This document shows, in pieces, positions 1-42,513 of a stretch of 64,000 bases of DNA. Made by a program: the position numbers and the translations under genes. The notes under the pieces were generated by a model. That model did not search any database and had not been told where the DNA came from. It saw only the letters and a list, made by a program, of their open reading frames with translations. The DNA is from Psilocybe cubensis (taxonomy: Eukaryota): assembly GCA_017499595.2 (NCBI GenBank), contig CM039009.1:1736001-1800000 (forward strand). The letters are read 5' to 3'. Positions within the stretch are counted from its first letter, which is position 1. Each line of letters begins with the position of its first letter.

Positions 1-2
1 AC

Positions 3-128
3 TGCAAAGCAGTGTATGTATATGTCAAAGGTAGTGGCATACAAATAGACGGCCTGGAAAAAGACGTCGTCCCGATATTCCCTTCATCGACATCCGTAGA
101 CGTCAAATACCAGAAACACATCAAATTT
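3..128 (+). pseudogene. Truncated PIF1-like (Helitron-type) helicase fragment
   Basis: Reads CKAVYVYVKGSGIQIDGLEKDVVPIFPSSTSVDVKYQKHIKF. This resembles the 'GL..gvvPi.P' segment preceding the R.QlPl..a.a.T..K.QG motif of fungal PIF1-like helicases. That motif is absent after ~128. Confidence 0.5.
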
Positions 129-2881
129 GACACATTCACGCCCATGGTAGGTAATTTGGATACACACATAATTATTACATTAGTACACAATATCACGCAA
201 AATTTTACTGGTTATTGGCATGGCAGGTAATTGCGTCGAAGCCGACTTTTCGAGTTATCTTTTGCCCTCTATTATTTAGTTATGGCCTGTAAGAAAGGGT
301 TTTGCATCAGTTACAAGTTTTTCCTGCTCCCGCTGTGACGTTATTGAGAAATGTGACTCCGAAAGTAACAGCGGTTCCGTAGCGGCACACGGAAAATATT
401 CAAAATGAAGCTTAGAGGTCGAATAGACAAATTAAATTACTCTGTATCTCTGTATTTGACACCGGTTCTCTAGCTACTACATAGCTGCATTTATACTGTA
501 AAAATAAGGTGTTCAAAGGAAGTATACAAAGAAAGAGATACAAGAGGGTTAATTGGGAAATACATGAAGGTGGAGTACAAGTCAGTTTTAAGGGGAATAA
601 AATGAAGAAATAGGAATAAAGAATAAAGAAAATGAGCTAAAGGACTGCGTGTATTGGGTGGACGGAGCTAAGGTAAAGTCCACAGAAAAGAAAATTATAG
701 ATAAGATAAAAGGAAGATAGTTAGGGGTGTGGGAAACAATCTGGATCGTCACACCCACCATTGGTTTTCGCTCACATCAAAACTCTCATCCTCATCTCAA
801 GGTTTCAACGAGGTCGAGCTTACACCACTCACCGTGCTCTCTCACCTGCCCTAGCCACGTCCTTTTTTTCTTCTCTCATATCCATCACATCCATTGCCCG
901 TGACCAACCGCCCGCTGCGCTGAGCGCATACCAAAGTCTGGTTTGTGTATGTAAGCACTCTGGCTCTTTTTAAAAGTCGCTTACCTGTCCTAGTTGACTT
1001 TCTTTCGTATCATCAATGCGCTAGCCACCGGCAGAATCCGAGCACTTTCTTTTGAGAGTTTTTTGCTTTCAAACATAGGGTATGTAGGTTCAAAAAATAC
1101 ATTCAGGTATATATAAGGTATTTACATATACTAGTATCTTTACATTTTGAGTAAGAAGAGTAGAAAAAGTAGAATTTGAGTAGATGTTATCTGCCACCCT
1201 TAATGTTATCTGCCAGCCGATGTGCCGAAGCACAGCCACATCTGCGCACGACTCCATTCAATAATGCTCGACGACTGGGTTGTGGGTTATTACAGCTCTT
1301 TATTAAGACCCTTTAAGTAATATTCCATATGATACATAAAGAAAGCATTACCCATGTGCAAAATATCTGCTTAATTCCGAGTACAGACGAAGTCCGGGGT
1401 AAAATTGAATAAAACACTTTTCGGACGCGCGTTAGCGCAAAATTTTTGAAATTTTACGTATTGTTTCGCACGGTAACTCATAACTTTTGTGTTTGGAATG
1501 ACGTATATATATTCTCAAGTAATTTATAGTCTTTCTCTCCACATATTAAACAAAAACAAGGAAGTGAGAATCTCTTCCCTTTTTCCTCCATTTTTTGGTC
1601 ATTTCCCGTTTGGGACACCCACTCCTATGAACGGAGAACCCTAGCCAAGGCCTAAATACCGTGGTCATCTTAGTCATGCAGCAATATTGAATTTATTGCC
1701 TTTCTTACAGGGTAGAACTAAATGATAGAGGGCAAAAAATAACATACCTAAGTATGTAACAGAATATACTTATTTGTATAGTGGACTCGGTGCAGGGTGT
1801 CGGAAGTCGTTCAGGCATAGCGGGATTGTGTGTTGCCTATCGATCACTCGGCATACCTGCCGGACGATGTTTGGTTTGTGTCTGGGCACCTCGCTCTTCC
1901 GGCTTTCCATAGAAACGGTACTCGGTAAATTTGCGTGCAAATTGTCAAATCTTGCGTGTGCATGTCATTGAAATACGTGCAGCGGGATTGAGGTAGCGTG
2001 TTATATGCGTGCATATTTCAGCATACTGATAAGGTGTACTAAGTACTGCCAGGAATATAATACGCTACCTATCTTTCTATACCGTTGTAAGCATTGAATT
2101 GTTATACAGATTTTTTCATTTAAATAGACTGCAACTCCAGCAAAGTGGTGTATAGTTTAGTAAGTTACTATGTTCCCCAGAAAGTTTGCATCTTTCACTC
2201 GCTCACCAAATACATGTCCAAAGGACAGAAAAAAGATTGATTCAAGTTCGCGGGACTGGTAACGTGGTGTACATTACTGAATAAAAGGCGTTGCCAGTTA
2301 CAATGCGAACGGTCTCGTAGTCGGGATCTTACAAAACAAATCCCTACACCTTCGGAATACATCAGAAACAGACTGGCTATCTCAAACTCGGTCAAAAATG
2401 ATATGTAGCTAAAGATAATTCACCACGGGGTATCTTTGAGATGAAAAAAATGCGTGTCACGCGGGCACACACAAAAACGCACACACGCGAAGTTGGTGGA
2501 GATTAGTTACCATTTTAGGAAAGTATCACGGCCATCAAAGATGTTATGAAGTGATTTCCTTGTATTCCATTGAATTTAACTTCTCTTTTACTTGGACTGG
2601 GTTATGGAATCAATACTTAGTCGAATTCGCAACTTCGTGGCTCGATGTAGCTTCCTGCTGTGGTTATAAGTGCCCGGTAAATAAGGGGCTGCCTTATGAT
2701 TTACAAATGTTCTAGTTTTCTTGAGCGCTTACAGAATGTTCTACACATCCTAAGTCACACTAAGACTCAACGCGTGGACGCGGTTGAACATGATACAGTA
2801 GATACTTGCCTTAAATGCATTTTATCCTGTGTTTATTGGGTTTTTTTTTCTCGGATTCTCGTGCGTCTGGCGCGTGAATAG

Positions 2882-3452
2882 CTAACCCTGTGACTTGGTA
2901 TATCTTTGTGAGCGTCTAATCCGTAATTTTCGTTAAACCTATATCCTTACTCTACAGTTTCGTCATGTTTTCAACTATGGTCCGATTCTTTTCTTCGAGT
3001 TTGACTTTCTCTACTCATTTATCCTATGTTTTGCGAGGCACTCAAAAACACGTTGGGTGGGACAAGAAATTGCTGAAAGACGGAATAGAGGCTGCATTGA
3101 AGGACAAGGAGGTCGAGTCGAAGCTTCAAGTTGCGCTTGGGCTTACCGCGTATAACACGAAGTTCAAGCTACGCGTGCTGGCGACCAGGTAACTTCTAAA
3201 CTTATGGCTTCCGCGTTGATGGTTTTTCATTTGTCCAGGGCTATTGCTTCCCCGTCGCGTACTGATGATACACCGCATTTTACTGCGCGGATTTTTGATG
3301 CCCCGGGAAACGGACGATACCTCGGATGTATTCACGCATACCCAATTGGTTACTCGAAACAGCCTTCGTTCTATTATCCTTCTCAAGACCGATCTCCAAA
3401 ATGGGCTCGGCGCGAGTTTGTAGCGTTGCGCCATAGAATTGAACGTATTTGA
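2882..3452 (+). CDS. Small spliced hypothetical protein (5' end uncertain)
   Basis: GT-AG introns join in-frame exons: NPVTWYIF|FRHVFNYG|TQKHVGWDKK...RVLATR|AIASPSRTDDTPHFTARIF...GCIHAYP...IERI*. Confidence 0.5.
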
Positions 3453-4146
3453 TCAAAGGTTTGTGTTTCTTCTCGTTCATTGTTTCGTTCAAACGCGCTT
3501 AACTCAACAGAATGTACATTTCCGTTTTTTTCGGCGCACTACAGCCGTATAACACGATATTTTGAAATTTTCAGAGCCATTTATTGTATATACTATCATC
3601 TTGGAATGCCAGTGCATTTGTATTGTATCTGAGTTTTGTTGATACATGGACTTCAGCACTAATAATATGTTGAGTTATTTTTTTTGGCTTGGTTTGTATC
3701 ACCACCACCTCCATCGACTTATTGTGTACTTTGTATAAAAAATATCCTTTGTCACGACAACTTCGCCAACACTAATTCGCCTTGCACTGCGTTTTTTTGT
3801 AAAAACATGCTTTTTATTCTTAATTTCTTTTTTGTAGGGTAAGGCTAGAGCGGTCTAGTATTGAGGCCTTGGAAGTGTTGTGCAGATAATGGCGTAAGTA
3901 AACGGACCTATAAACACCAGGCAATAAGCGTTTTTTAAAAAATACGAACAAAATTTGTCAACGTCATACAAGAAGATATTTAGAGTTACAACTATTTTAC
4001 CTACAGTGGTTCCACTTGCTTAGAAGTTTCGTGTCATACGCAAAGTTGGAAATATGGATCCGACATTTAACAACGTTTAAAGGTCAATCTATTTGTCTAA
4101 GTACATGTACAACTTGATATTCAACACACCATCAACCTGATCATTG

Positions 4147-5725
4147 TCATATAGATGTGGCCCAACTCCATTTTTCTCTGTTGAAGTCGGGCTGTATCTC
4201 ACATTCTCTCCGCTTCGCAGGGTCGGCTCGCCATATACGAACCACTCCAGCTTCCGCACATACGGCCAAAGAGTTGTAAGACCAATCCACTCCGTATGAG
4301 CTTGATGACCCCCCTCTCAATCTCACAGCATGCGCTGGACTGACATCTAACCGAGTGTCGCGCGCGACACTATAAATGAAAGCATCCCCGTCTCGAGACC
4401 CCATGCCGTGTACTAACCATCGACCGCATGGCGAGACCGACATTTTCGCGTAAAACGAAGTGGTCCCCCCCAAACCATCAAAGGATATCGGGTTCGCACA
4501 TAAATTTAAATCCCGTGCACAGTACACGTATATCTTTGCGTCGATACCAAATCCAAATACAATGCCTTCTGATTCACCGATACCCATCACGAGCGATACG
4601 ATACCCCTAGACCGGTGATAGTTATACAAGCCTGGGTCCAAGTTAGAGCGTAATAGATACTGGCTAGTCGATCTGAAATCCCACAACCGGAGAAAACTAA
4701 CAGCGAAAGTGAGTCGTGCTTCCTAACACATGTTACAACACTCACCCATTAGCAGAACAACTACTTATTACACCATGAGTAACATTGTCATGCGGTACGA
4801 GTCCCGTGATAGTGGGCTCCAGAGAAGCTTTGACTGCCTTGTGTGCATGAGAAATGGTTGCGACGGGTCTGATACCTGTCAATCCCGAAGATAAACGAAC
4901 CGAAGGTTCCACTCGCAAGTCCCACAAAGATATAGTGCCTTCTCTATCTCCAGTGTATACAAGTGATTCGTTCGTGGGATGCCACAAAACACACTTGACA
5001 GGTTCGCAGTGTCCGTGTAACCGATGCGTTATAAACCGCTCTTCGACAGTCACAACAAACCCGCCGGGGTGATAGTCGCCCGTATATTTTGTATGAGTAC
5101 ATGTTCCGACTAACAACGACTTATCATCTCCCTTCCACTTTAGATCGCTGATGTAGGACGAATGTTGCGTGACCAACCGTCCTCTAGGGTCTACACGAAA
5201 TAAACAGAAAAGCGCAAATTCGAGATCAGTGTTAAATTGCAACGATCAAGAATATCGACAACTACCACATTCCGATAAACACTTCCGCCGCGTATCAAGT
5301 ATTTTGACGGCTCCGCTGAAGGTGCCTATCGCAAGCAATGACCCACTACCAGCTTTAGAGACTACACACAAATGCGAGTTATACGCATTGATAAGCAGCG
5401 CAGTATAAGTCCTGTTACATACCATTTGAATACGAGCAAACAGAGCGTCTATCAAACGATCCGCACCGGTAATCGACACCGTTAAAAGTGTCCGAAATAT
5501 TTGAAGACACAAACGATTTTAAAAACGGTAAACGAGAGACTATATCACGGGTAAAAATCAGTACTGGGTCGTATCGGATCCATCCGACACAAAAACTGTA
5601 CCTCTACAACCAGTGCGATACACAGTAGTAGACAAAAAACATCGTTGCATCTGACCATCATGGAGGGTCCGTGTGCTAACTCTTCTTTCAGTATTGACGG
5701 GGATATCTTTATCAGTTCCAGACAT
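4147..5725 (-). CDS. cdt2: Divergent Cdt2/DTL-like WD40 protein (CRL4 substrate receptor paralog)
   Basis: Five exons splice in frame from ATG 5725. Cdt2-type blocks: LPFLKSFVSSNISDTF, CSYSN, LLAIGTFSGAVKILDT, GDREGTISLWDLR, FYAKMSVSPCGRWL, GVVRIWRAD and C-terminal KWSWA. Confidence 0.82.
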
Positions 5726-6109
5726 AAATCAACAATAAATCGATCTCCGGTCTTTTATACAACGAAACGTAGACACACAGAAATCTAATTCACATACATT
5801 ATTATCAAATAGTCGATAGTTACTAGGCCTTGAACAGCCCGAAACAGCCTGATCATCAAAATATGTCAATAAGATTACGATCAGCAATGTCCATGACAAA
5901 TATAAAATGGTCATCACCTTTGACGTTCCATGACAACGTAAGATATTCTGATGAACATAAGAACTTGTCAATAAAAACTAATGTTTAATCGATAAACGCG
6001 GTGTGCTATATCCACTGACTCCCTTCATCGGCCGATCATTCACTAGACGTCACGTCCTGTCTGTGTGGTGATTGTCAAATTGCAAGAAGAGAATGTTCTC
6101 GGACGCAAC

Positions 6110-6600
6110 TCAGTGACTTTTTAACACTTCTGCAATTGGAAGTTGAAAATCTGTAGTTGCAATTGTTAGAATGGGTTATTAATATTAAACACCAGAAACA
6201 TACCGTAGCAAGAGCAGTGTCGATCTGAAAAAAGGTCAGCTTTACGAACTTTTAGTGCAAAACAAAAACTCACATAGTCGGTGGTGATGTAACCACTTCC
6301 CTTAGTGTTCTTCGAGTTGCTGACGCGCAGGTAACTCTGGATGTTGAGGACAGACAAGACTCCATATGGAGACATGACTGTGAAAACGAGGCTGAAAGCA
6401 TCACGGTAGGTGTAGTCGGTACCTGGAATCAAAATATGCAAAGATTGGCATTGGTTTGGCGGGACAAAAACGAGTCCGGAACTTAATGCGGACGGTACCA
6501 GTGAGATCAGAATGCGTAGTAGCTAGAAAAATGTTTAGAGCAATGTCCTATACGGAGACATGTATGATAAATACCTTGAGTTACAACTCCTTGGATCGAG
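6110..6600 (-). pseudogene. Spliced hypothetical gene, probably frameshifted
   Basis: Exon-like ORF (HILIPGTDYTYRDAF...GYITTDY) bounded by GTGAGT/GTATGT donors. Apparent 1-nt frameshift near 6455. Confidence 0.28.
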
Positions 6601-6634
6601 GAATGAATAGAATTTAGAGTTAAGAGTGACACAA

Positions 6635-7475
6635 TACGGGCCATACACCATCCCCACATTCATCTGCGCGCTCATCTCATGGACGCGCGCGCTCAGCTCG
6701 CCCTTGCGCGTCTCCTAAGCCTTCATGAGCGTCTCGAACGCGCTGAGGAGTTGCTTCCACGCGAAATTGTCCCAGGCCCGATCTCCACCTTGTGTGTACG
6801 GATATAATTGCGCGAGTGCGGTTCACCCGACGCAGAGACACCGTACCCGAACGTTGGAAGGGTACAACACCACCGGCGCTACTGTCGTAGCTCTGACCCA
6901 AGCTGACCCCACCATCCATCCTCGTTGCGCTTACCACTGTAACTACTGTTGCTGCTGTGATTGATTAGCTACCCGATGGATGAGTACGAGTCGAACTGCA
7001 TGACGTATCCCGGGTTGTTGTAGCTGCTACTGGACGGGTTTGTAGGCGCTCGGGTTGCCCTGCTACTACTGGCCTTGGAGGTAGCTGTAGCTGCTGCCGC
7101 AGACGTGCGCTGCGAACTGTTGGCCAAAGCTACTTAACGACTGAAAGGGTATGCCACCGCCGCTGCCTGTATGTGATGGGTAGAGCTGTACCCAGAGAGA
7201 TATCCGGCACCGCTGCCTCTCATCGAGATACAACCGCCCATCTACTGCTGCGGTACGTATCCCATGGTCATTTGGGGCTGTTGCTGTTGCTGCTGTTGTG
7301 GGTACTGCTGGTACATGCCCTGTTACTGTTGCTGCGGGGTGACGGGGCTCATCACTGCAGAACCCTAGCCACCATACTGTTGCTGCTGCTGATTTGTGAC
7401 AGGAGGGCTCGAGAGGTCTGGGAATCGCGCACTGTGATTGGATCCGCCATCAGCTATAAAAGGGATGTTGGTCAA
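6635..7475 (-). pseudogene. Decayed copy of a conserved Q/P/S-rich basidiomycete hypothetical gene
   Basis: Translation: (L)TNIPFIADGGSNHSARFPDLSSPP..QQQQQYGG*..GGGIPFQSLSSFGQQF..FDSY..EPHSRNYIRTHKVEI..WDNFAWKQLLSAFETLMKA*ETRK. Many in-frame stops and frameshifts; TTG at the expected start. Confidence 0.65.
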
Positions 7476-9012
7476 AGACTGGTTCGCGCTGTAACCGGAG
7501 TACATCGATAGCGCAGGGAGTTGTAGATATGAAGAGATATGGGTAGTTGGATGAGTCTAAAGGACATGACTGCGTATTAACCGCGAGCCGTAAAAGGTGA
7601 AAACTCACAGTAATAGATAGATTGGGCAGCAGTAACGGATTTTTCGAGTTAGTAATAGCCATGCTATGATAAGGTTTTGATGAGAAATACTATCCAGAGT
7701 TAAATAAGAAAGAAAACAATATGGTTGACAGTGGCAGTGCCAAATGTGAAGCCAGATGGGACACTGGACAATAAAGGTCGAGTTGTAACCAATACAAAAA
7801 AATGTACTTACTAGACTCTCAAAGTCAACGGATAGTTCTTGCGGTTTTGGTTGATGGGTATTCTTGGGCCGGCAACAGTGATAGCAATGCGGTCGACTAG
7901 TAAATGCGTGTCAAATTTGAGTTTCATATGAAAAAGACAATGTATGAATGAACGGCTGAGAATGTATTAGGTGATTCCTGGAGGACACCCCGAACCATTG
8001 ACACCAAGAGACATGCTGCTGTAGCGCGTTCAGTGAAAGCAAAGAGAGGATATGTCAGGTATAACATACATGTTGAAGCCCGGAAGTGCTGGGACAACGA
8101 TTGGAATAGTTCTAGAGCGACGGGACATAGACGGAGGAGACAGGCATTGTCAAGTGCGCCGGGGACATTAACTAGCATCTGGAGCTGTTGGTTGATGAGG
8201 GAGGAAGGGGCGTCGGGGATACAGACCAACAGGATGGTGCTGCTGGTCGTGGAAGGAAGTGGAGAGGAGACGGTTGTATAGGGACGGAGCGGTAGCGGGT
8301 GTGACGACGACCGGCAGTGCGATGCTGCTGGTTGTTATCAATTGGATGGACAGCGACACGACTTGCTGTTCAACATAGTAAAGCTGGGATACATAGAAAT
8401 AGCTTAGAAACTTGAGTCAGAATCCGTGTAACGTACCAGGAGGGCCTCCTCTCTATATGGGCCCCTTACATTGCCTGACCGTCACTTTCTGTGTCATCTC
8501 CGTCGTCGGTGGTCGACCCTAATATGGCCAGCCAGAGTGAGGTTGAGTCCGAACAAGAACAATTTAAAACACGTCACCTGATTGGCATCGTGGATTCGTG
8601 CTACCGGTCATTGAACAGTTTAGCAGCGGTAGGACAACAATTAGCAGTGCTTTATATGACTGGCCTTCCCATGCCACTCAATACTCAACTATTCACCATA
8701 GTCCTGAAAAAGGTTATAAATCTACGATTGAAACAGATATCTTGGTTGTGGGTGTGTATAGCGAAAAAAAAACATGCCATGGTCAATTGAATACTACTAC
8801 ATACAAGACCCGACAACGAACAAGTTTTCTCGTTAATGTAACAATGGTATCAACAATCAGTGTACACTGTAAATACAGCTAACTATCCATCCTTGGGATA
8901 TCTATATAAAAGCCAATGTTAAATAATTAACACCATAAAAATATGAAAAGGGGAATAAATAATTCACTTCATTCTTAATGATATAATACAAACAGAATAT
9001 CTAAAATCAAAC

Positions 9013-10328
9013 TCAATGGGTATATGGGTACATGCCATAGAAGGTCGTCATGTTGCCGTTTGCATCAAAAGAGTGGCACATACACTTGAACCTAAAAAGT
9101 TCATAGTTATGACCAGCGACGCGCTCGGGTGGGCCGACTCTACGAGGTGCAAAGAGGAACTGTGCATAGCGACTCAGTGAATGACACACTCGACCAAAAA
9201 AATAAAACATAAAACATAGAAATAAAAAAAGACACTTTACTGGATTATCAATCTCGAAATAAGGCGTAAAACCCAAATGACATAACAGACAATCGGCCGT
9301 AAACTCGATGTACCACCACATTTCAGTGTCGGTTAGCCCTATAATATCCAACGGGAAGAGCTCTGTATGTATGGAATGTTACCATCAACTTAAAATGTGA
9401 ACATGGACATGTCACATACCTAAAACCATTTGTTTCTCGATGTCAACGGCACGAAGAACGATCTGCATGACATGGCTCTGGCACGGCTTCTTGGAAAACC
9501 CGGAAAATAAGTGACAGACAAAGTCCAGGAATAAGTGGTTAGATGATTGTATCATCGTTATCGCATGACTAAGTTCCGGTACCTCGACCAATGCGTCCGA
9601 GCTCGACAGTATAGTGTAAGCGGAAGAGTTGAAGATACCAGCGCTGACGGCCAGAGCAAGCACCCGATCCACGAGGGAACCGTTAGCATTCGCGGACGTT
9701 TTAGATGCCCATGTCATTACCCAGTCTTGCATCTGAGCATAATACGTAGACCCGTGTATGGCAGAGGATATACGGTCCATCTCGGCATAGTCGGTGATCA
9801 AACCAGACATGAGTTCAGATATAACACCATGGTATATATTTTCACTGAATAGTTCAATCGTCAGTTCATAAGAAAACAGAGTACATGGATAAGACAGACT
9901 TCATAGTACGAACGTCCATAGCACATCGCGCTTCAAACAGGTCAAGGGATTGATATATACTATCAACTATCGGTGACCTGCCCAAACGACGTGGTAATAA
10001 CACCATCAATGCAAGACCGAATATATGGCGCTGGTCGTGGTCGAGTTCAAGATCCCAACTTTCTGTCAAAGTCTCGAGGTCGATGGTGTCTACAGTCCAG
10101 AAGGAGCTCGACATTCGCTTATATACATCCCAAGTCTAGAATTTTAACAGAGATTTAGATGGCGAATTGAATAAATAAAACAAAAATAAAAAAGGAGAAA
10201 AGAGAGGAGAAGAAGCAATACAGAAGAAAAAAAAAAAAAAAAAGAAAAAAAAAAAAAAAAACCGGAGACTGTAAGACCTTTTCGGAACTCGAGGACAGTA
10301 ATGTAAAGTGAGTGGGTCTGTCGATCAT
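9013..10328 (-). CDS. Ribonucleotide reductase small subunit (R2)-like protein, predicted catalytically dead
   Basis: Spliced product aligns colinearly to R2: WDVYKRMSSSFWTVDTIDL, FEARC, ENIY, DRVLALAVSAGIF, RAVDIEKQMV, YIEFTADCLL..LG...NP. Ancestral ATG at 10940 is separated by a MITE; the second Met at 10328 remains. Confidence 0.82.
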
Positions 10329-10329
10329 A

Positions 10330-10921
10330 AGATTGGGCTCATCAGGAACCAGCACCCCCTTAGGTAAGCAAAAGTTGGCTTACCTCCGAACCTTTTCAAC
10401 CCTTCTGCACTCACACTATTCTACATTTTTGAACCACAGATATGTAGGTTATGCTTCTTTGAACACATCTGTGGTTTTTTTTTTCAAAAAAATTTTGATC
10501 TCAAGAAGTTATAAAGATTTTAATTTTTTTCCTTTTTTTTTAGTCTAACACGTCAGAAATGGTGTTTTCTCGAGTTTGGGAGATTTTCGAAAATTTGACA
10601 ATGTTCTTTTGGCCGCTTATATAATGGTACACGTGACCACACGTGACAATAAGTCACGCCTAAGTAATACCTCTCAGACTCATTATGGACTTCCAGAGAC
10701 TACAATTTGACCTCTGAGGTGTAATTCTATTATTGTGGGCATAAAGGCTAGTAGTAAGGATTGTATATGCACATTTATGAATTTTTTTTTTTTAAACTTT
10801 TTGTCTGAAACCATTTTCCGTCAACATAACTTTTGATTTTTTTTTCGAGCTGGATTTTGGCCGCTCTTGGCGCCAAGCCCATTGATTACGTAAGGGTGCT
10901 GGTTTCTGATGAGCCCAATCT
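10330..10921. mobile_element. MITE (592 bp) with 28-bp TIRs and TA target-site duplication
   Basis: Left TIR AGATTGGGCTCATCAGGAACCAGCACCC; right TIR reverse complement AGATTGGGCTCATCAGAAACCAGCACCC (27/28 match). TA at 10328-10329 and 10922-10923. AT-rich non-coding interior. Confidence 0.9.
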
Positions 10922-25462: not shown

Positions 25463-25492
25463 AAAATTAAAATTAAAATTAAAATTAAAATT
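25463..25492. repeat. (AAAATT)5 microsatellite
   Basis: Five perfect units seen directly. Confidence 0.9.
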
Positions 25493-29766: not shown

Positions 29767-30099
29767 ATAGTCCGCTAATTAGAAAGAAGGACCAAGGTTT
29801 GCGGAGTATATATGAACAACGACTTTGTATTTATTAATTATATATGTCAGGTATCCACTCGAGTCGCCGGAATATACACTAGGTCATTCCAGTCCATTCA
29901 AAACAATGACATAAAAACGGTTACACTAGATTACAGCTCACGACATTAAATACATGTACAGAAAAGGTATCGCGCTCGATTGTCAATATCGTCGAGAGTG
30001 GCGTAAAGGAAACTACCACATATTACTGCATGACACTCACACACCCGAAATACACTAGCAATGTAAAGAGAATTACTAAATAATTGCATACGATATTCA

Positions 30100-30760: not shown

Positions 30761-30935
30761 GACACAAACAACCCAGTCGTTGCTGGAGGGACAACCAAAG
30801 ATTCTATATTTGTTAATACAACGCACAAACAGTATAAAAACTCTAAGAGGATGACACCGAGAACGAGAAGACAGGAATATATTGTAGACGACACAGAAAC
30901 GCTACCATTTAGGTTATACGCATCAGGAAAGTAAT

Positions 30936-32432
30936 CTAGTTTAACTTGACACGCGAAAATTTCGTGAAAAACCGATGGCGTAGAGCGGATTCGATAGTGA
31001 GTCTGCGATGAGGGTCGACTGCAGTACACATAGATATAAATTCCACTGCGTCTGACTGGTTGATTGATTTCTAACAATGCATTTAATCATAGACTTCACG
31101 GTTCACGAACGCTCGAGGTAACACACCTTGAACCACTTGACATCGGCCACATGGCGCAAAAGCTTGTTGCGAACTTTAGCATTGATTGCTGCGCCACGGA
31201 CTTTCGGGACCCTAGTTTTAGTTCGGAATATCGCTGGATGCATTTCACTGATATCTTGAGCCTGACCCGGAGCGAAATGTCCAAGCAGCCTCTCCATACA
31301 GAAAAAATACTCCCGAACATCATCTGTCTTCGGAAACAATGACAAACCCGTAAAGATCTCGAATGTTAAACATCCGACAGCGAAGACATCGACAGGGAAA
31401 CCCCAACCGACACCTATAGAAGCGTATAATCAGAAATGTAAGGAGTATCGGAAAACGTCATACCCACCACCATACACTTCCGGAGCACGATACCCCATTG
31501 TACCGGGGACAAAATGGAGGTTACGAGGACTTGTGACAGAATCTTCGAGGTCAATGATTTTGATTTGGACATTAGACACAACGTTCTTCAAACACGTATT
31601 CTTTAAGCATTGTAATGGTCTAATTGACAAGAATTGTGACGTACTTTGTTGTAAAAAGCGCCATCTGGACTGATATCAGACACAGTAGTCGTTTGGTCAT
31701 CGACGAGAACGACGTTCTCAGGCTTGATGTCCGTATGCGCTATATCCAACGTATTATGTAGGACTAAATGTACATGAATATCTGACGCAAAGTAATCACC
31801 ATAAATTGAAAACACTCACATGCCACACCGTTACATACTTGCCACATTATGGCCTTGATTTGGAACAAAGGAAGGGGAAGCACATTTTCCTTTGTTATCA
31901 TTTCCTTGAGATTCATTCCATACAATTCGAATACGAGACAAGGATGACGGAGGTGAAAGACAGTTTCCGCCAGACCACAAATAAAACTGAAGTACAATGA
32001 ACTACAGTGAATAATGGAATCGACCAAAAGAAGAAAATACTCACCTTGCATCCACAGATGAAGAATTTTTCAATAATGCAGATACGTGCGCGGCACGGGT
32101 GGCCCGCACACTCTCACCGACGGTATACATAACTTTAATCGCGACGACGCGGGCACAGCTTTTACTTTCGCATCTCCACACTTCACCAGAGTATCCGGAA
32201 TTTATTAGTTCGACGGCAAGATCTCAAAATAATAATAATAAAAATTTAAAAAATGAGGACGATGATAAGTAGAGAAAACACAGTAAGTTAATCAAACTAC
32301 TTACAGTCGTCTGCTATGACGTCGTTCTTCTGGACATTTGATGACCTGCAACCAAGTTAAATACACGACAAACAAATACAGAGAAACATACACAAAGTTT
32401 TCAGACCCACTGGATGACTGATTGTCATCCAT
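30936..32432 (-). CDS. Divergent CMGC (LAMMER/CLK-like) protein kinase
   Basis: Spliced motifs: SGYSGEVW, VAIK, HPCLVFELYG, HTDIKPENV, IKIIDLE (DFG variant), GTMGYRAPEV, WGFPVDVFAVG, EYFFCMERLLG (cf. EHLAMMERILG) and DPHRRLTIESALRHRFF. Confidence 0.85.
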
Positions 32433-32656
32433 ACCAAATAGAACTGGTAGTTAATCAAACGACTGTTCGCGTAGGTACGTAGAGGAGTTCGGTCCATTAT
32501 AAGCATATAGTACCCTACATCATTCAACTTTTTTCGAACAAAGAACAATACAAAACAATCGAATAGCACGTCATCCCGATGACCCTGATCCAATCCCAGA
32601 CCAGTTACGTGACCAGTTCATGACGCGTTATGTGGCGAATCAACTGACCACCCTTC

Positions 32657-32759
32657 TGACTAATCAACACTTTTTTGCCCACCGGGACCACATGGTTCTA
32701 AGTTTGTCAAAACTATTGACTAACGACAAAAACTACTGACAATGTTAATGACTAATCAA
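32657..32759. promoter_or_regulatory. Repeated TGACTAA motifs in the divergent kinase intergenic region
   Basis: TGACTAA at 32657, 32717 and 32749, two of them as TGACTAATCAA. Matches a bZIP/Yap-type site; function not shown. Confidence 0.3.
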
Positions 32760-33246
32760 TAAGAAAATATAGAATACGACCATTCACTTACCACTCAGTG
32801 AAGAGTAATACACACTCTCATCGTTCCCTACGTTTCTGTAAACGTTGGTCATAGTAAAGAAACAATTTTCTTCATCTTCTTCTTTTTTTTTCCTAAATAT
32901 TCAAATTTAATGATAATATAATATTATTCGGGTTGCTGACGTTTATGAATGTTCAACAAACGGTCATCAAATGATTAAATTTACATTACGAGCATTTTGT
33001 TCTATATCAGATTTCAGATTTTCCCATCACGACCAATAATCATTTACCATAGTACTTCGCACAGGTCTCACCGCAGACATCAACAGGAGAGTAACGGAAA
33101 ACTCACGCGTATATCACAGTCTGAAAGTCTACGACGGAATTGTATTATACGCACCCCTTCGACCGGCTGGTTCGAACCGATAACCGACTCCGAAAAATAC
33201 ATAAGACTCACGCATAGTAAACACTCTACATATACAAGGTACAACT

Positions 33247-34720
33247 ATGCCAGAGATATTGTGGACTATCAACACACCTCCGAGGTATGTAACACACTCA
33301 GGAATAACATTCCATGACATTTACAATCCGCTTTATATAGGTTCCCACAGAATAAAATGTTATGCAATCGTTGTGAGCGTATAACACGAGATTATGACAT
33401 ACATGACATTAACAAGTCCGACGCCGTAATACCCAGATACGATTAAACATATCCTACACGAAGGCAGATCGTCCCAGCTAGTGCAAGCAAAGGACATTAT
33501 AGACAAGACCATGAAAATAGTAAGAACGGTTTGTCGGACCCGAGCCACGGACATTATGATAGCCACTGAGTGTGAATGGCTTCGAGCGATAGGGGAAAGC
33601 AGTGGAAGGTAAGTGGCAATGACCATGATCAATGACGCTTGAAAATCTGTTGCCTCTTAGAATATCCAAGTTAATGGGATACCACACCGATAAAATTTAT
33701 TACTACTTGGTATTCGAGGCACCGACAAGAACATTAAGAGAAGTTCTGTCAACCCCAGAGCTTTACTTATCCGAGCGACACAAAAAAGAAATTGTATCCC
33801 AACTATTGCACGCAATCGACAGTCAGTAACAGCTCAACGACTTACTGTTCATAAACTAAAAACTCTTTAGGCATACACGAACACAGCATAATGCACAGAG
33901 ACATATCACCGGATACTATAGATTTCGTCAACGGCAACGTGATCAAAGAGAAGTGGTATAACTTTTTCATCGGTCAATTCGACACAAGGGTAAAACTCTA
34001 CCTTACTACTCAAACGGCGCTGTCATTCATGTTCAATACACAGAAAGTACTGGCAGCAACTAAACTACGACTTTCATTTTATGGATACACTACCGAGGAA
34101 ACACGTCTAACGGACCGTACGGAACAATATGCATCACCGGAAGTGGTCTATGGTAATGTTTTAATAAATTACTGTAAATTCATGACAAATGTATTCACCC
34201 GTTCCATATGACTCGATAGGTCTAGCAATCGGCAGACCAAATGATATCTTCTCGTTAGGTTGCATAATAACGGAAATATTCACCCGTGTGCCTCTTTTTC
34301 CTTCTTGTACCAGGTCACCATATTACAAACGGGACAAGACGCTTCTATACGACGCTATTCTAGGACCCTTCCCAAGCGGTCTCATTACACAGATAAGGAG
34401 ACCATATAGCCATGCTTTCACTTATCCTGATTCAACAACCCACCACACGACCCCATGTATATCAGACTCGATCAGAAAAACCGGAGATAAATCAAATACA
34501 TTAAGGGTAAGTACATTCCAAAATAAATAAAGAATACCAGAGCATGTCGCTAAATTCGATACATTAGAAACTAATTAAAGACAACGACGTACACACTGTG
34601 GTTAAGACTATGACCCGTCTCGATCCATTCGACAGACCAAGACCATCAGACGTTCTAGGACTTGCGTACTTCAAAGAACCGAACGTAAACGAATATGAAG
34701 AAGATCAGATCGAATATTAA
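33247..34720 (+). CDS. CMGC-derived pseudokinase
   Basis: Spliced: RYTIKHILHEGRSSQLV, KIVR in place of VAIK, YLVFE, HRDISPDTI, LRLSFYG in place of DFG, QYASPEVV, DIFSLGCIITEI, PLFP, LDPFDRP. Confidence 0.8.
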
Positions 34721-34942
34721 GATACAGAATTAGGTACTGGTGTATCGAATATGACATAGAACATATATACTGATTCGCAGACGCATCGATTAGTACTTGT
34801 CTAGTGTAGGCAATTGCATTAAGCGTGGCATTTACGAAGCCTTCTTTTGTGCTTAGAAATTTTGGTTATAATTTGCTATCTGGTTGACCGGTTCCGCCTT
34901 TACTGAAGTCTTCGCTGATATCCGAGCTCTTGCCCTCTTGAG

Positions 34943-35664
34943 ATGGTCAACGTCAAGATTCCGATCAGTGCTACCGGCACTTCCCTCATCTCGTTCAGCG
35001 CCGCTATCAAGGAGATGAACCGCACTTGCATATGTACCCAATCACAACTAAGAGATTTATGTACTAGGAAAACACTATCATGTCTCACGCCAGATAACTT
35101 AATGTACATGATTCACATCCGTGTCCAAACAAGCACTTCATCACAAATCACCTTCCCCGTGTCTCTGCACCACATATGGGTTGGCGCGTTCCTACACAAA
35201 CCGGAGCTTGTAATGTGCGAGTTTTTGAGTAATAGTCTAGCTGGACATTAATCGGTTCGTACTATTTTTTATTGATTTTTTGGTCAGTATTGTTGCGTTG
35301 CAGGAGGCTACAGGCAACGGCGAACCTTTCTCTGCCTCTGCAATTGGTTCTAACGCACACAACAACAGCAGCAGTAGTGGTTGTGCTAGATCAGATAGAA
35401 AAAGCAAAACTCACCGCCCCAACAGGGTTCATCAAAGCGCATAGCAGGGCTGTAGGCGCAAGCGTGATGGATTGCAAATTTGTCAAAGGTGAAGAATCGA
35501 TCCTTGTGTCGAATGGACTAGATATGGACACGGTAACGAACTGTACAAGGTATAATGTCTTGGGCAATATGAAATCGTTCAGGAGACAAAACAAGTAACA
35601 GTTATTGAACTGCTAAGTATTAATGTTTAGAACTTTACGTACTCCTCAACCTTGTGAATATTGA
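34943..35664 (+). CDS. Three-exon hypothetical protein
   Basis: ORFs 34943-35251 and 35272-35598 join in frame via a GTGCGA...TGCAG intron. A short last exon follows. Confidence 0.45.
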
Positions 35665-38568
35665 CACAATAAATGTCACTCATCGAAATCTTGCTATAGG
35701 AACAAACGGCAGATCTATCAAGTGGAGACGTAAACAGCAGTGGTGAGTACGCTACTCGTCACACGGCTGGGTACGGCATAAGACAGACTGTGGGATGACT
35801 CAACAGGGTTGAACACGAGAGGGGTGGTAAGTAGAACATGAGCGGCGAATCAGTACCAAGAGCATGGGATGGTCAAGAGATATGTAGAACCACAACATTC
35901 GGAAGCGGAATGAGTTGCAGCGCCAATGTTACATAGAACCCGGAGAAACAACACAGGAACACGTTTAAACGAACAGTGTTTTCCAGCTACATGCTGTCTC
36001 AGTGATATGACATAAGATACAAGTTAACCATCTCTTTGACGAAACTGAGGACGTATAGAACGTAGCGAAGGCGAAGGAATAAGACACCGAAAACGAGAAC
36101 ACGGCGCTTTTTGTGAATGGAAACGGGAAAACAACGAAAGCCCGTCTTTGGTCAACAAGCATTGTCCACCACTAGTGAGTTAGGAGTCCGAGTCAAACCT
36201 GTAAAAATCAAAAAACTACTGTGTGACATACATTATCGTCCTCAACACACATAACGAAACGTACAACGGAATTTAAAACTTACCAGCAAACCATGTAATC
36301 AAACATTAGACAGAGACTTGAAAATGTCTTGAAGACAAGTAGGAGACTCGGATGAAGACAATGGATGCCGATGAGAGGAGTGGTAGTGTTGGTAGCGACG
36401 ACAAAATGATGTAGCGGCAGCGAGACGACATATGATGGCAGGACAATAGATAGTGACTGGGATATGGTTGGTGACGACAAGGATAAAGACGAGAGAAATG
36501 TAGCGACGACAAGAGTGGCGGTGACGAAGAGAGGACGAGATCAAGAGGAGGACTCTAACATCGCGGTCCATACCTTAGTGAATCTTCGTATCTTTTCTGA
36601 ATACGCAAGGTAACGAGTGACGTGTTTGCATACATACCTGTTCGTCGAACATATCCAGAGTACGAGAAGAGACAAATGTAAAGCGCAGGGTCTGGGTGAA
36701 CGGCTCGAATTGGAGAGTATTCTCGTTTGAATTCCAATGAACAGACATGATGGACATGACAAAGTATGACTCACCCAAAATTGAACCGTTTGACCAACCG
36801 TTCCGATGAAACCGTCGGAACTCGAAATAGTTCAGTCAGGAACGAATGGCCTGGGAAACTTGGCCTTGCTGTAAAGTAAGGCTCTCACTTTCTAAAAGAT
36901 GCATGTTGAGGTAATGTTTCTTCGTGTTTTTCTTCACCCTTTTGTCAAACATTACCTGAATGGATTTCTGGCATATCGCCAAATGTTGGGACATTGTTTG
37001 GTCGATGATTGTGAATGTTGAGGGATTATTTGTCACAGTTTTCTTTATCGTGTTTGCCAATCATGACCGCCATTTGGACTAGACTCGCGACGAATACTCC
37101 TCTCCCTCCTAACATCTACGCTGATGACCATACCGTCTGACTGGCTTTCAGATATTTTCATATATCTCTACTCTGTATAACTGACTATTTTTTTTTTTGG
37201 TACATTTGCTATGATACATTTTGTACATATTTGTTTCTTTCTTCTCTGTACTTAAAATCGACCGATTAACCAGACTTACATGCATTAGTATTTTTAGTAT
37301 TTTTTGTATAAGTGTAAGTGTAAAATTGACTACCAGAACAGATTTCAACATCCAAAAAAAATCCCAACGAGACCCGAATTGACAAAGCTAATCTTTTATC
37401 TCCTAAGGGCTTGTCCGAAAGTTTACTGTTTTTGGCCCTCAAATCCGCGAGAATCTGGGTCTCAAATCCACGGAACCGGATAGACATTGTCAAGGATACT
37501 TCCAAATATAGAATTTTTTCTCTATCTACAACGATTCAGCTAAAAACCAATATTTATAAAGTCATCGCGACTGACGACCTCGACCACAACATCAGCGCGT
37601 TTGGATCTATATATACGGGTATCTGAAATCTGAAACCTCTAAATGTCTTTATACCACTTTTTGTTTCAATTTATTCCAATTTATATACTGATGAGCTAAT
37701 GATATGACGAGCAAATAAATCGCTTTTATGAGTTACATACACAGTTCCCAGAAGCGGACAAAACAAACGGATGATGGGTTCCAAAAACTCAATCGACTGT
37801 GGCTTTTACTGCGTCAAGAAATTAACATAATAAATTTCCAAACGCGATTGAAATGTACGACGGAACGAATGTTAACGACTGGACAAGCACAGTCACTCCA
37901 ACTTCTAGTCTTATCAAAAGAAACTCGAGTATTGAAAAGTACAATTGACCGGCACACTTCACTATCTTCACATTGAGTCCAATACAGGGTCGACTTTTGG
38001 CGTCGACGTTTTATAGTCTAGACGCGATAGCGTTCTATTCAAATTGTATCTCAAGGAGAATGACTACACATACGCCACGGCATGGCATGTGAACTCTCGA
38101 ATATCCTATCCGGTGAACCATGTTCTCAGAACAGTATGGTTCCAGGAACCGTGATCGAAGTTGATAATCACGCGCGGATACAACTGTATAACCCAGATGT
38201 AATGACACTGTCTTACTTGTTATAGGAACACCAAATGGAGATTTCAACCCACACAAATCACACGAAATATACAATGTACAGTATCGGATTTATGTCATTC
38301 ACTAGAAATGTGTGACTCGAGTATCTCCACCTACAAAGAGCGTTTAACGGCTCGTAAAAAACACCGGTAAACTGCGTAAACTTCACGTCCATCTAGATCG
38401 GAGAGTTATTGTGCCAGAGCAACAACTTGACCATCGTCGCCCCAATCAGTTATTACCGCCACTATAAATTCGATTGTATATCAGAACACTGGTAAAGTAT
38501 GTTTGTAATGGCTGGCTTAGGTGGTTGGATCATCGACGTGCGTTGTACACCTCTCACTATTGCTTTTT

Positions 38569-39201
38569 ATGACCATTCGCTTACTATATAACCAGCACTC
38601 TGTCGACCTGAAACCGGATATTACACACCACGAAGATTTATTTACGAGGGCCAGAGCACACGAAATGAATGTACGCACTGAAAATGTATCATCTATGCTA
38701 TTCTTCTATTAGAGATATGACCGAACTTACTTCGTATCTATAGGCCCCTAGACGCGTTCTTTGCATTGTTTTCGCTACAGGTGGCTCAATCGAACTCATG
38801 AGTATCGCCCCATTTAACGACAGAACTTCGGATGTATTCGACGTTGGAAGACTGTTCCCAAATGGTGCCATCAGCTCCCGAGTTACCTGTATTCCAGGTA
38901 CCGCGTTCAGACTCGGGAACCATCTTAGGATAATCGTGTCAAAAAACGACCGGAGCGGTCCTGTTAACAAGAGTGTAGAGAAAATATACAACATTCAATG
39001 GCACGGTAACATCGTCGTTGCCCAATACGACGTTAACGGTATACACCCGATAGATTTTAACATCAATCAAATCGAATCTGTCGTATCTATTTTCTCATTG
39101 TAAGTTTCATCACTACAGACCAATTGTTTCTAGTATTAATCCCAACAACAATGTCAAGGTGGATGAAAAACATGGAATCTATCGAACGTAACGTCACATG
39201 A
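38569..39201 (+). CDS. Hypothetical protein with 'N..i......W.Gni.v' motif
   Basis: TATAAA at ~38463 and in-frame introns. PVNKSVEKIYNIQWHGNIVVAQY resembles a motif I recall from uncharacterised Agaricomycete repeat-region proteins. Confidence 0.55.
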
Positions 39202-39364
39202 GCCTTAAATTTCGAAATAACATTGGAAAATGCTATCACTTCATCTGTCGGATCATTGACGGGTCTGTAAGTTTTGCTGTACACGCGCTACAAGACATTT
39301 TATCCGTCGTAATGTTAATTGTACTGGATTGTTTGCGATTAGTTATTACGCCTAGATATGAATG

Positions 39365-40458
39365 TCACTTACATTGAAGAGACGGTATAACCCGCACAGT
39401 TCCGGAGTTCGTTTGCGAGTCGGGTATTCGAATGACACAGAACGGTACAGAGACCAACTTCTCTTCTGCTCGACGTTGGTTCATTAGATGACTCGAACCT
39501 AAAATATATTAACGGTCAGATCACACTCAAGTGATTTACAGGAAAAAAGAAAGAAAGAAAAAAAACGTACATTCAAAATTTATCCTCCAACACTGAGTAT
39601 CCAGGACATCGCGCACAGTGTCTAAAAGATCGAACTTGAAATGTTGTTCTCTGTCGTGTATAATACGGAATCCTCGGCTGGTATACTTTTCTATCCAACG
39701 CGTTTGTCTTTCAGTGCCTTCTTTGCGCACACACTTGAATTCTCTGTCTATGAAAGTGTGTCGAGGGAAGACGGACACTGCAAAGGTGGCGGAAATGAAG
39801 TTCATTACTCCCGCTACCGTTATTTAACTGTAATGATCCGAACATCTACCAGAAGAGTGTACTTACTCGAATGGTATTCGTGGAGGATATGCCGAATTGG
39901 GGACCCAACAACCCCTATAATTTGAATAGACCGACAATATTGAGTACCGTCCCATAAAATTTCCGTCTTGCGATAATTTAAAACCACTGTGATCGAGCTT
40001 CTACTAGGAATCAATCGAAAAGGTATCGAAGAATCCGTCTTGAACGATTTTTCGTAATCGTACTGAACATCTCCTGAAACAAAGGTGTAACCTTCACCTG
40101 CTATCCAGTCTGCGAGTCGTAGAACACTTTTATGATGGGTGTAGATGTCCATGTCGCTGTCCGGTATATACGTTCTATCAAAGAATTGTACCGCTTGGGA
40201 TCCCGATACTATCGCTCGACATTCGCGTAATTTGCGCTGGAAACCACGGACATCGAAAAACCAGAGTCGGAATCTTGGTTCAAAACCCCAGATGTACCTG
40301 ACGTACGACTGAACAATTTCTCGAGTGAGACGTGAAGTCCCTCTCATTGCGATCAACTGTTCTAAGTGACAGAACGACATTATCCGGTAGATTAAATTTG
40401 GGGGTAAACATGCCATCGAAGTGAAAAGAGTATCCTTTGCGTAGTCGTGGTCGGCCAT
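39365..40458 (-). CDS. F-box-like N-terminus plus Pol-beta-type nucleotidyltransferase-like domain
   Basis: LPPNLIYRIMSFC (F-box-like). AIVSGSQAVQFF...DSDMDIY fits hG[GS]x9-13DxD. Then IQIIG..YHS|VMNFIS...VFP...KYTSRGF. Two introns. Confidence 0.7.
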
Positions 40459-40808
40459 TCGAATATATTGTTCGGTAGCAACAGAACACTTCTTCGCTGT
40501 ACGATGATATATACGACGAATCAGTCAGAAAATTGCTCGTAAGCATCCTCCCACTTACGTGCGACGTATTACTCATATTACTAATCTTAATTACGTTGCA
40601 AAAAGCACAACCATCCCGCATTTGGATCAAATTGTATTATATCATCACGATTACTATACCCTTCCAAAGTTGAAAAAACATTGGCCTTAGCATTGTAGAC
40701 ACATTTTACGACATGATACAGCTATAAAAGAATATACTTCAACAGGTTATATTCGATTGTACCAGTTGAACGACCCCTTCTTATCACATTTTACACTCGA
40801 CTTCCATT

Positions 40809-42167
40809 ATGTCTCACACACAAGAAATATCTGACATAATGACTATATGGCAGTCAAAGAAATTAAGAAAGGAGGACATCACCTTCACGAAAGCGGCCAT
40901 CTCCTTGAATACGAACGACCCTTTGGTGGTAGCACGACCAGGTTTAAATAATTCGAAATGGATAGTCAGTCTCACTGCTCATACTAAATCACAAAATATA
41001 TCGGTTGACCATAGTCCGCGCTTACAGGTCTGTGACACTGTCACAGGGAAAGTGGCTGTACTAGTACACGCGGGTATATGGAAATGGACTACTGACCTCG
41101 AAACCGGAAATTTTGTACCGTATGGAGAGGAGGCACCCGAAGGCGTACCTGACGGGCAAATGTAAGTGAATTTGCATGTAAAGTATCATTGTATATTAAT
41201 ACCACTTTTCATATCAATTAATAGTCAAGATGAACCATCGTTTAAATGTAAATTTAGTTACGCCTTCGACACATCCCGCGATACTAGCATATGGGACAAT
41301 ATCAAGGTATCTTCCTACACTATATTAATTCCGTTCTATGACCGCCAATGACGGGAAGATTTTTGAAGATCATGTATGCCGTCAACCTGGATTTAACAAA
41401 GGGAACAGACCTCGTAGACCATGGCAGAACGGTCGCAGCTCGACTAATAGAGATAAATATATCATTAACACTCGAGTTTTCGCGAACCGTTCAGCATTCA
41501 ATACCAAAGAGGGTGGCGAATATAAAGTCCCTTATGAAGTTCACCCTTGGCTGAAGGAAGGCATAACACGATTCCCTGAAGCTCATCAAATACCGAACCC
41601 AGACAGACCGAAATACTTTGAATTTACGGAAAATCGAATTAGCAGTCTTGCGGACTCTAACGAACCTACCTTCAAGCAAGGAGACATTATTTGGATGACA
41701 TTCAAGCTAGGGTTTGTTGTTACTGGTGGCTATTGGTGGCCGGAAATCATTCCTATAGAATTTGTAAGGGTAGGGAAATTACCGGAGCAAATACATTCTA
41801 AAGCCGATCATTCACTCTTCCCATCCGTTGACGAGTCGTTCAATTTACTTTGCGCCGGGGACATCGTCGAGTTCACAGATGGTTAGTTGCTAAGCTTTAT
41901 TATGGTCGATATTCATCTAATGCGCAAGGTATCTTTTTTTAACCAGATCATTCTCCTAGACCAGTAAAACGGATTAGGTTGCATGATTCATACAACCAAG
42001 AAGAAGACTCCTATCGAAGGAAAGGTCATGTCGAGAAAGAGGAAGACATCAATATGAACGACGAACCCGTGTTAGATGACGACTACGTGCATGTTGATGC
42101 ACCTGAAACCAATTCCAAAAACCGGCTTCGATCGGGTAGAGGAGGAAAAAATACTAATCGTTCTTAA
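40809..42167 (+). CDS. Hypothetical protein, possible OB-fold ssDNA-binding protein with acidic/basic tail
   Basis: TATAAAA at ~40723. Four exons splice in frame. Beta-rich aromatic core with FKQGDIIWMTFKL, then a D/E-rich and R/G/K-rich tail. The fold call is inference. Confidence 0.6.
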
Positions 42168-42513
42168 TGTAATCGCCACTCGACCGCGATGTACTCGAAC
42201 AACGACTCGGATATGTAATTAGATGTGTAATAGACAGGTGTGTACTCCGACATATAATTTAGATACATGTCGAGACATCAAACATTGTCTGTAAGCCTAC
42301 GCTTTTCGTTATATTACATGGGCAGGATGCCTAGTTCCCATAACCGATAAATGCCTGCGTATATAATAGCCCAACCAACCGCGTCCAAATTACATGCTAC
42401 TGACCGGACGCATTTACTTGGAACATGCAACCCATATCATCCGAGCACACACAGGATTGATACACACACTTCCAGCTCAGTATATTTGGCACAGGTTTCT
42501 CCATCTGGAAGGC

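Follow-up and report, generated by a model that had tools for sequence, protein, structure and literature searches.

A low-GC, gene-poor block of the Psilocybe cubensis genome with a degenerate ribonucleotide reductase R2-like gene may be a recent duplication between chromosomes

Two kinds of fungal DNA come closest to the block described here: the Starship elements of the Pezizomycotina, and subtelomeric or segmental duplication blocks. Our block makes up positions 1-42513 of a 64,000-nucleotide (nt) stretch of Psilocybe cubensis DNA (GenBank assembly GCA_017499595.2, contig CM039009.1, positions 1,736,001 to 1,800,000, forward strand); this whole stretch is called the window, and it is nuclear DNA of a fungus that has short introns and a single gap of 100 N. 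The block resembles a Starship in its size, in carrying unrelated cargo-like genes, in its apparent two near-identical copies at different places and in a sharp boundary; it differs in having no visible captain (a DUF3435 tyrosine recombinase), no visible termini and no visible empty site. Starship-type recombinases are few in Basidiomycetes, and the cited passage of PMC11162782 links none of them to an element with identifiable boundaries, so it places no bounded Starship on record in this group. With fungal subtelomeric and segmental duplication blocks our block shares a low gene content, lower GC, pseudogene fragments, fast-evolving paralogs and what appear to be near-identical copies on different chromosomes; it differs from them in that the window shows neither a telomere repeat nor a telomere-linked helicase. 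Two of its genes also have described counterparts, namely yeast Rnr4, a degenerate R2 subunit of ribonucleotide reductase (RNR), and Cdt2/DTL, a substrate receptor of CRL4.

We propose, with a probability of roughly 0.5, that positions 1-42513 belong to a fast-decaying, lineage-specific block that underwent a recent, large duplication between chromosomes. The block is at least 16 kb and probably more than 42 kb long, and it is probably present as two near-identical copies per haploid genome on different chromosomes. The following features bear on this.

1-42513, no strand: low-GC, gene-poor block, recognized from composition, read depth and two annotated R2-like genes on separate contigs
9085-10328, minus strand: putative R2-fold pseudoenzyme gene, GenBank name 'RNR subunit M2', recognized from Pfam and from catalytic columns reading R E Y I A N F
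42514-42613, no strand: assembly gap of 100 N, the place of the depth step
42767-46013, no strand: single-copy core genes that serve as depth and RNA control, a spliced gene at 42767-44258 (plus) and ornithine carbamoyltransferase (OTC) at 44509-46013 (minus)

The R2-like gene is annotated twice. Its 90% cluster consists of four P. cubensis proteins, two of which are placed on contigs: KAH9484795.1, of 321 amino acids (aa), on a contig of 4.33 Mb, and KAH9475404.1, of 308 aa, on one of 2.56 Mb. These two differ by N/D at one residue, the window having the D form, and because their GenBank and RefSeq accession series are neighbouring, both probably come from one assembly. If both contigs belong to the HiFi reference assembly of P. 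cubensis, a Mb-scale haplotig duplication would be unlikely, because that assembly has 1.2% duplicated BUSCOs (PMC8220353, in the part cited). The other two members of the cluster are P. cubensis proteins listed in UniRef only, with no contig. P0170, which is UniRef-listed and has the N residue, continues at 100% identity over 77 aa into window positions 8401-8171; this much of the flank thus appears to recur in the P0170 gene model.

We then compared read depth on the two sides of the gap (26501-42508 against 42509-46500), with four runs aligned on 26501-46500. In run X12, whose reads were aligned at a likeness of at least 85%, the median raw-read depth is 55.8 in the 24 bins to the left and 30.0 in the 6 bins to the right, a ratio of 1.86, and the two sets do not overlap (minimum 43.0 versus maximum 36.1). 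With this alignment threshold, an allelic divergence of 1-2% would not halve the depth. A total of 1631.7 million letters over a genome of 46.6 Mb (PMC8220353, in the part cited) gives an expected depth of at most 35x; since this matches the right side, we take the right side to be normal and the left side to be doubled. The contigs of run X9, which belongs to a different study, have a word depth of 25.3 on the left and 12.6 on the right, with 6.4-7.8 for short right-hand contigs, and these values fit units of one, two and four haplotype copies. The original prediction, an earlier description of the window made from its letters alone, had proposed a check for multi-copy blocks; as far as it went, this check was positive, with two near-identical R2-like genes on two Mb-scale contigs and about twofold depth left of the gap in two runs.

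Divergence also changes at the gap. Among the listed contigs, X9 and the window disagree at 44 of 16065 positions (0.27%) in the block and at 42 of 3580 (1.2%) to the right of the gap; the lower value in the block fits a young duplicate or homogenisation. The stretch at 3.5-13.4 kb is contained, at 0.85-0.99 of its words, in nine runs from three studies, four of which are possible sources of the sequence; the share is 0.85-0.94 in the five non-source runs (two studies), in a search that lists containing runs only. Run X10, with a share of 0.08, was considered as a related species and rejected, its matches being short identical pieces at depth 2-6.

The composition of the block sets it apart from its right flank. 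GC is 0.43 in 1-42513 and 0.48 in 42.6-64 kb, beyond the gap; the two sides are also unlike in dinucleotide make-up. The ratio of observed to expected CpG is about 1 on both sides. Two indices of the repeat-induced point mutation (RIP) type are 1.00 and 0.88 on the left and 1.20 and 0.71 on the right, a difference that may reflect coding density alone. The left limit of the block is beyond the window and its right limit is in or near the gap. On the left, contig 16 of run X9 overshoots 42513 by 742 nt; on the right, 2011 nt of contig 17 precede 42614. Because these overhangs do not bridge the gap, the real gap is longer than 100 nt. That the link between the block and the core genes crosses an N gap had been stated in the original prediction, and indeed no listed contig bridges it. 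The core genes themselves are expressed: GT..AG and CT..AC joints are present in RNA contigs at depths of 22-193. Splicing of OTC was checked on these contigs, and its name comes from reading the ORFs (open reading frames). The run in question, X14, is taken to be RNA because it contains spliced transcripts of both core genes.

The gene that led us to the second copy is itself degenerate. Our Pfam scan took in 70 stop-free ORF pieces. The block has 65 stop-to-stop ORFs of at least 100 aa, and these pieces cover 64 of them; the remaining ORF, at 9547-9852 (plus), is antisense to the R2 exon. Ribonuc_red_sm (PF00268) matches one exon at 2e-14, and outside the introns the exons are identical to a 321-aa P. 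cubensis 'Ribonucleoside-diphosphate reductase subunit M2' (tblastn, 10328-9085, minus). This bears out the divergent RNR-R2 gene of the original prediction. Against 1.84 billion representative proteins, only the protein itself reaches 1e-30. The next match, at 7e-30 and 29% identity, is vertebrate RRM2 over residues 28-293, followed by a 'ribonucleotide reductase' of Auricularia subglabra; the closest R2 relatives are canonical eukaryotic R2 proteins at up to 30% identity, and no protein of this collection outside its own cluster exceeds 30%. A metagenome scan with P0001 returned 17 pattern matches, none of them a relative.

In an alignment of 30 sequences, the seven catalytic columns of the protein read R E Y I A N F where the canonical set is D E H Y E E H, so one of seven is kept; 23 of the other 29 sequences have the full canonical set. 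Alignment to RRM2B from the PDB gives the same reading. The protein ends in ..YIPRMDS and does not have the acidic ..DF ending that is present in 11 of the other 29 sequences, the rest of which end otherwise or look cut. In R2, this acidic ..DF C-terminal tail binds R1. A quick tree of 60 of the 150 listed matches, chosen by length (290-520 aa) and rank, gives the protein an end branch of 4.6 versus a median of 0.83 (about 5.5x) and does not place it. At the same time, the gene has short introns and an open, spliceable frame of about 310-320 codons, and we infer that such a frame would not persist in an equally diverged, long-dead pseudogene.

Degenerate R2 paralogs are known. ScRnr4 is without several of the iron-binding residues (PMC9431586, in the part cited). 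Our protein shares with yeast Rnr4 and with other such paralogs (the apicomplexan R2_e2 clade, and P0003) an R2 fold that is collinear over residues 28-293 and the loss of metal ligands, as a result of which the tyrosyl radical cannot form. It differs from the Rnr4 type in that only one of seven catalytic residues is kept and the radical tyrosine and the canonical ..DF tail are lost as well. Judged by its residues, we class it as an R2-fold pseudoenzyme whose degeneration has gone further than that of yeast Rnr4. Both the di-iron centre and the tyrosyl radical would be impossible in such a protein; if it is made, its role would be limited to that of a non-catalytic partner or decoy, like the role of yeast Rnr4. 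P0001 and P0168, two P. cubensis entries that GenBank and RefSeq name 'Ribonucleoside-diphosphate reductase subunit M2', cannot be active R2 because of this one-in-seven score; the name looks like an annotation error by similarity, and we flag both entries as mis-annotated. A second Agaricomycete, Auricularia subglabra, also has a degenerate R2-like protein, P0003 (316 aa), with columns reading K Q H A G E H. The Psilocybe protein does not group with it in the tree, and mushrooms may have evolved R2 pseudoenzymes on more than one occasion. As a side observation, the 90% cluster of vertebrate RRM2 (P0002) also lists 'Krueppel-like factor 11a' proteins, which looks like an artefact of clustering or of read-through between neighbouring genes.

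The remaining genes of the block that could be recognized are these.

About 4147-5518, minus strand: divergent Cdt2/DTL-like WD40 (DCAF-type) gene, from Pfam WD40, a PDB match to DTL and spliceable junctions
30939-32223, minus strand: CLK/LAMMER-like protein kinase, from PDB matches to CLK1-4 and catalytic motifs read by eye
33629-34717, plus strand: predicted pseudokinase paralog, head-to-head with the kinase, from motifs read by eye and a pairwise match to the kinase
39823-40524, minus strand: F-box protein with a weakly nucleotidyltransferase (NTase)-like core, from Pfam, GS..DxD and fold matches
40770-42164, plus strand: three-exon gene of a Basidiomycota-wide hypothetical-protein family, from ORF layout and the ESM Atlas
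13975-15277, minus strand: two ORFs of 128 and 294 aa with an F-box-like N-terminal motif seen by eye only and no family match

The exon of the WD40 gene at 4745-5245 matches Pfam WD40 at 5.3e-8, and its PDB matches are generic single-repeat WD40 proteins. For the last exon (4150-4722), human DTL/Cdt2 provides the top two of the six PDB sequences with E up to 0.1, at E 1.1e-4 and 25 bits. The alignment runs unbroken over 157 residues (query 11-167, chain 240-391), covers three blades and places 'LRLWDFR' of the last exon on 'IKVWDLR' of DTL. The gene has two WDxR motifs, 'LRLWDFR' and, read by eye in the preceding exon, 'ISLWDLR', and a canonical 49-nt intron (GTGAGT..AG) can join its last two WD40 exons. 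It resembles Cdt2/DTL in its WD40 propeller, with DTL as the best solved relative over three blades and the second WDxR aligned. It differs in that the ORF stops right after the propeller and so has no long C-terminal tail, and the match is weak. The neighbours in the ESM Atlas are generic WD40 clusters only. The name Cdt2-like, as given in the original prediction, is thus supported by Pfam, DTL and the spliceable exons but, with a 25-bit score and generic neighbours, not secure. A word-based search found no annotated P. cubensis protein of at least 294 aa that contains the WD40 exon, and no close homolog. Exact look-up of 10 Met-to-stop ORFs in the protein collection also found none present.

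For the kinase exon, the top 19 PDB sequences are all CLK1-4, the best at 2.7e-8, and a 'LAMMER-like dual specificity kinase' matches at 3e-5. By eye, we read the motifs VAIK, HTDIKPEN, APE and 'EYFFCMERLLG', with DLE at the DFG position. The head-to-head paralog is 37% identical to the kinase (E 6e-11) and reads HRDISPDT, with SFYG replacing DFG; by its motifs we class it as a pseudokinase. Pfam support is weak, at 0.004-0.012, for every exon of the two genes. A LAMMER-like kinase with a pseudokinase is what the original prediction had described.

The F-box of the 39823-40524 product has a Pfam E of 6.8e-4 and 19.9 bits, just below the cut-off of 20.5 bits. The product contains a GS..DxD string; the search turned up only two relatives, 51% and 29% identical. 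An AlphaFold model built from these three sequences has a predicted local distance difference test (pLDDT) score of 52, and nucleotidyltransferases are 12 of its 50 listed fold matches, with Z up to 6, which makes the NTase-like core a weak lead. The product of 40770-42164 is close (ESM Atlas 0.97) to Basidiomycota clusters with no Pfam domain. Thus, the general anatomy given in the original prediction holds in most of its gene identities (Cdt2, R2, the kinases, the F-box and the dead pieces), and for 39823-40524 the F-box half is borne out, just below the cut-off, with the NTase half left weak. Other parts of that anatomy found no backing. The OB-like fold, at 41329-41883 within the gene at 40770-42164, gave an unusable model (pLDDT 37) and no PDB match; the F-box at 14396-15277 has no Pfam match and no PDB match below E 0.2; regular-expression scans for a GRF finger found nothing convincing; and the sole candidate for a PIF1-like fragment is a Walker-like 'LLLGSGKTS' at 25134, with no Pfam or PDB match. 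Codon-usage scoring failed to tell exons from noise.

Besides these genes, the block holds dead pieces of others, as had also been predicted.

19253-20492, minus strand: carboxylesterase pseudogene fragments, Pfam COesterase at 2.6e-8 and 0.018 in two separate frames
6169-6522, minus strand: DUF4360-like fragment, a gene or a pseudogene piece, PF14273 at E 1.5e-5 and 25.3 bits versus a cut-off of 27
26980-28002, no strand: decayed copy of a gene expressed from another locus, matched by RNA contig record 9
34875-35025, no strand: 150-nt fragment of another expressed gene, 89% alike, matched by RNA contig record 10 (16 differences in 151 nt)

The COesterase pieces lie at 19256-19771 and 20097-20492. 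The last two stretches match RNA contigs at about 86-89% only: record 9 (2348 nt) aligns at 26980-28002 in three pieces with 105 differences in 765 nt, and about 35-40% of X12 reads at 27014-27376 share its differences. Over all aligned X14 contigs, the window has A/T where the contig has G/C at 76 sites and the opposite at 31, most of the listed differences coming from a diverged paralog transcript; this suggests that the dead copy at 26980-28002 is drifting AT-ward. What X14 RNA there is on 28.5-42.5 kb consists of transcript pieces of diverged paralogs or repeats and none is from the block's own genes, though such contigs show presence and not absence. No RNA run is among the runs listed as containing 3500-13400.

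Together, these observations suggest the following course. A gene-poor, lineage-specific block, possibly from a subtelomere-like compartment, would have been duplicated recently between chromosomes, as one whole unit and by ectopic recombination rather than transposition, and the duplication would abut single-copy core genes at the assembly gap. Its genes would be old, fast-evolving paralogs and decaying duplicates, and not a designed toolkit. This last point concerns the central idea of the original prediction, an S-phase toolkit that rewires replication control. From the gene sequences, the theme appears to rest on two or three degenerate genes, that is, a dead R2 with one of seven residues, a Cdt2-like gene and the kinase/pseudokinase pair, and we do not uphold it. 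In fission yeast, CRL4-Cdt2 controls an inhibitor of RNR, which makes the closeness of a Cdt2-like receptor to a dead R2 suggestive; a functional link between the two is unsupported. If plain duplication accounts for the two copies, the block neatly illustrates how paralogs are stored and eroded in mushroom genomes.

Several points weigh against this duplication. The two lines on copy number cover different parts of the block, the R2-like gene models 8.2-10.3 kb and the depth 26.5-42.5 kb. Depth dips over conserved genes can be filter artefacts, and the lower right-hand depth of X9 could come from heterozygous haplotypes. Since none of the listed contigs spans the join at the gap, the core genes may lie elsewhere than beside the block. 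The term subtelomere-like is an analogy only, because the window has no telomere repeat (0 matches anywhere to (TTAGGG)3 with up to 2 mismatches). Near-identical copies, low diversity, captured fragments and a sharp boundary would be equally expected of a recently active giant element. It is unlikely, but worth weighing, that the region is an ordinary single-copy, fast-evolving one and that the second R2-like model and the depth step are artefacts of a haplotig, of heterozygosity or read filtering, or of mis-scaffolding. Several points favour this reading: the caveat on depth dips applies here; beyond the gap, X9 has short contigs that differ from the window by 1-5%, like haplotype bubbles; 1.2% of BUSCOs are duplicated in the reference assembly (PMC8220353, in the part cited); and there is almost no repeated DNA within the window. 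On the other hand, allelic divergence of 1-2% cannot halve the depth of X12 at its threshold, the same ratio is present in two runs of different studies, the expected depth fits the right side and not the left, and the two gene models, one residue apart, sit on contigs of 4.33 and 2.56 Mb.

Decidedly unlikely, in our view, is a giant cargo-carrying mobile element of Agaricomycetes with two recent copies, whose mobilising gene and left terminus lie outside the window. The near-identical R2-like copies on different contigs, the roughly doubled depth with a sharp step at the contig end, a between-strain divergence fourfold lower in the block than beside it, the fragments of genes expressed elsewhere, and the lower GC and unlike dinucleotide make-up would all fit such an element. 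Yet the 64 ORFs scanned hold no Pfam domain of a transposase, a recombinase (DUF3435/tyrosine), DDE, KDZ, a Helitron Rep/helicase, any other helicase or a reverse transcriptase. No terminal repeats were found within the window, one boundary being in the gap and the other outside the window, and the block has no landmark RNA (no tRNA, 5S or any other Rfam family). All five non-source runs contain most of 3.5-13.4 kb, and no strain lacking the block and no empty site was seen in a search that lists containing runs only. The scarcity of Starship-type recombinases in Basidiomycetes, none tied to a bounded element in the cited passage of PMC11162782, also speaks against it. An endogenised virus-like island that owes its RNR, kinase and ubiquitin-adaptor genes to a large DNA virus is very improbable. 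R2, kinases and F-box-type adaptors are known from large DNA viruses, and the R2 tree leaves our R2-like protein unplaced. However, the same ORFs, which represent the visible part of the block, have no Pfam domain of a capsid, a packaging ATPase, a polymerase or an integrase, the genes carry short spliceosomal introns, the nearest R2 relatives are canonical eukaryotic ones at no more than 30% identity, the gene at 40770-42164 is from a Basidiomycota-wide family, and the CLK-like kinase is of a cellular family. The original prediction had itself noted that no integrase or capsid gene was seen, which the Pfam scan bears out; its large selfish element or virus-like island is not supported by the domains, termini and RNA landmarks that we looked for. 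What is shown here comprises the identities of the genes, the missing catalytic residues of the R2, two annotated copies and a step in depth. A plain segmental duplication accounts for the facts with fewer assumptions.

A more specific proposal, more doubtful again than the giant element in general, is that the block is one arm of an undescribed kind of Agaricomycete giant cargo element, recently copied to a second chromosome, which carries linked degenerate S-phase regulators (a Cdt2-like CRL4 receptor by a dead R2 that may be an RNR decoy) together with the CLK-like kinase/pseudokinase pair. Should the copies prove to have termini and a recombinase in common, Agaricomycetes would have their first bounded giant cargo element, and the Cdt2-like receptor and the R2 pseudoenzyme, 4 kb apart, would be a candidate module for the control of deoxynucleoside triphosphates. 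Our literature searches gave nothing on this block, though supplements could hold tables of elements or duplications.

The repeat arrays of the original prediction did not reappear in our searches. Tandem Repeats Finder gave one poly-A tract and (AAAATT)5 and nothing else; the repeat search gave two two-copy direct families and one inverted pair of 54 nt, so repeated DNA within the window is almost nil. Inverted repeats are few and short. Two remnants of dispersed repeats were recognized from loose-end reads.

37430-37485, no strand: dispersed-repeat remnant of about 50 nt, with 121-244 loose-end reads per side in X12, seen also in X9 and X14
32599-32650, no strand: second dispersed-repeat remnant, from loose-end reads

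The 54-nt pair, the largest, is 85% alike (19249-19302 and 25537-25590), and its arms are 6.2 kb apart. One arm lies at the end of a carboxylesterase fragment; the pair could reflect another piece of that esterase gene in inverted orientation, or else mark the ends of a non-autonomous element. Two shorter inverted pairs could bound small inserts like miniature inverted-repeat transposable elements: one of 45 nt (254-298 and 1699-1743, 89%) with 1400 nt between its arms, and one of 30 nt (10328-10357 and 10894-10923, 97%) with 536 nt between its arms, which overlaps the 5′ end of the R2-like gene. To the right of the gap, the long ORFs look like those of ordinary conserved genes; by ORF reading, we named an ornithine carbamoyltransferase ORF at 45055-46013 (minus), a cytochrome P450 ORF at 46915-48372 (plus) and an Nbs1-like FHA/BRCT ORF at 54684-58532 (minus).

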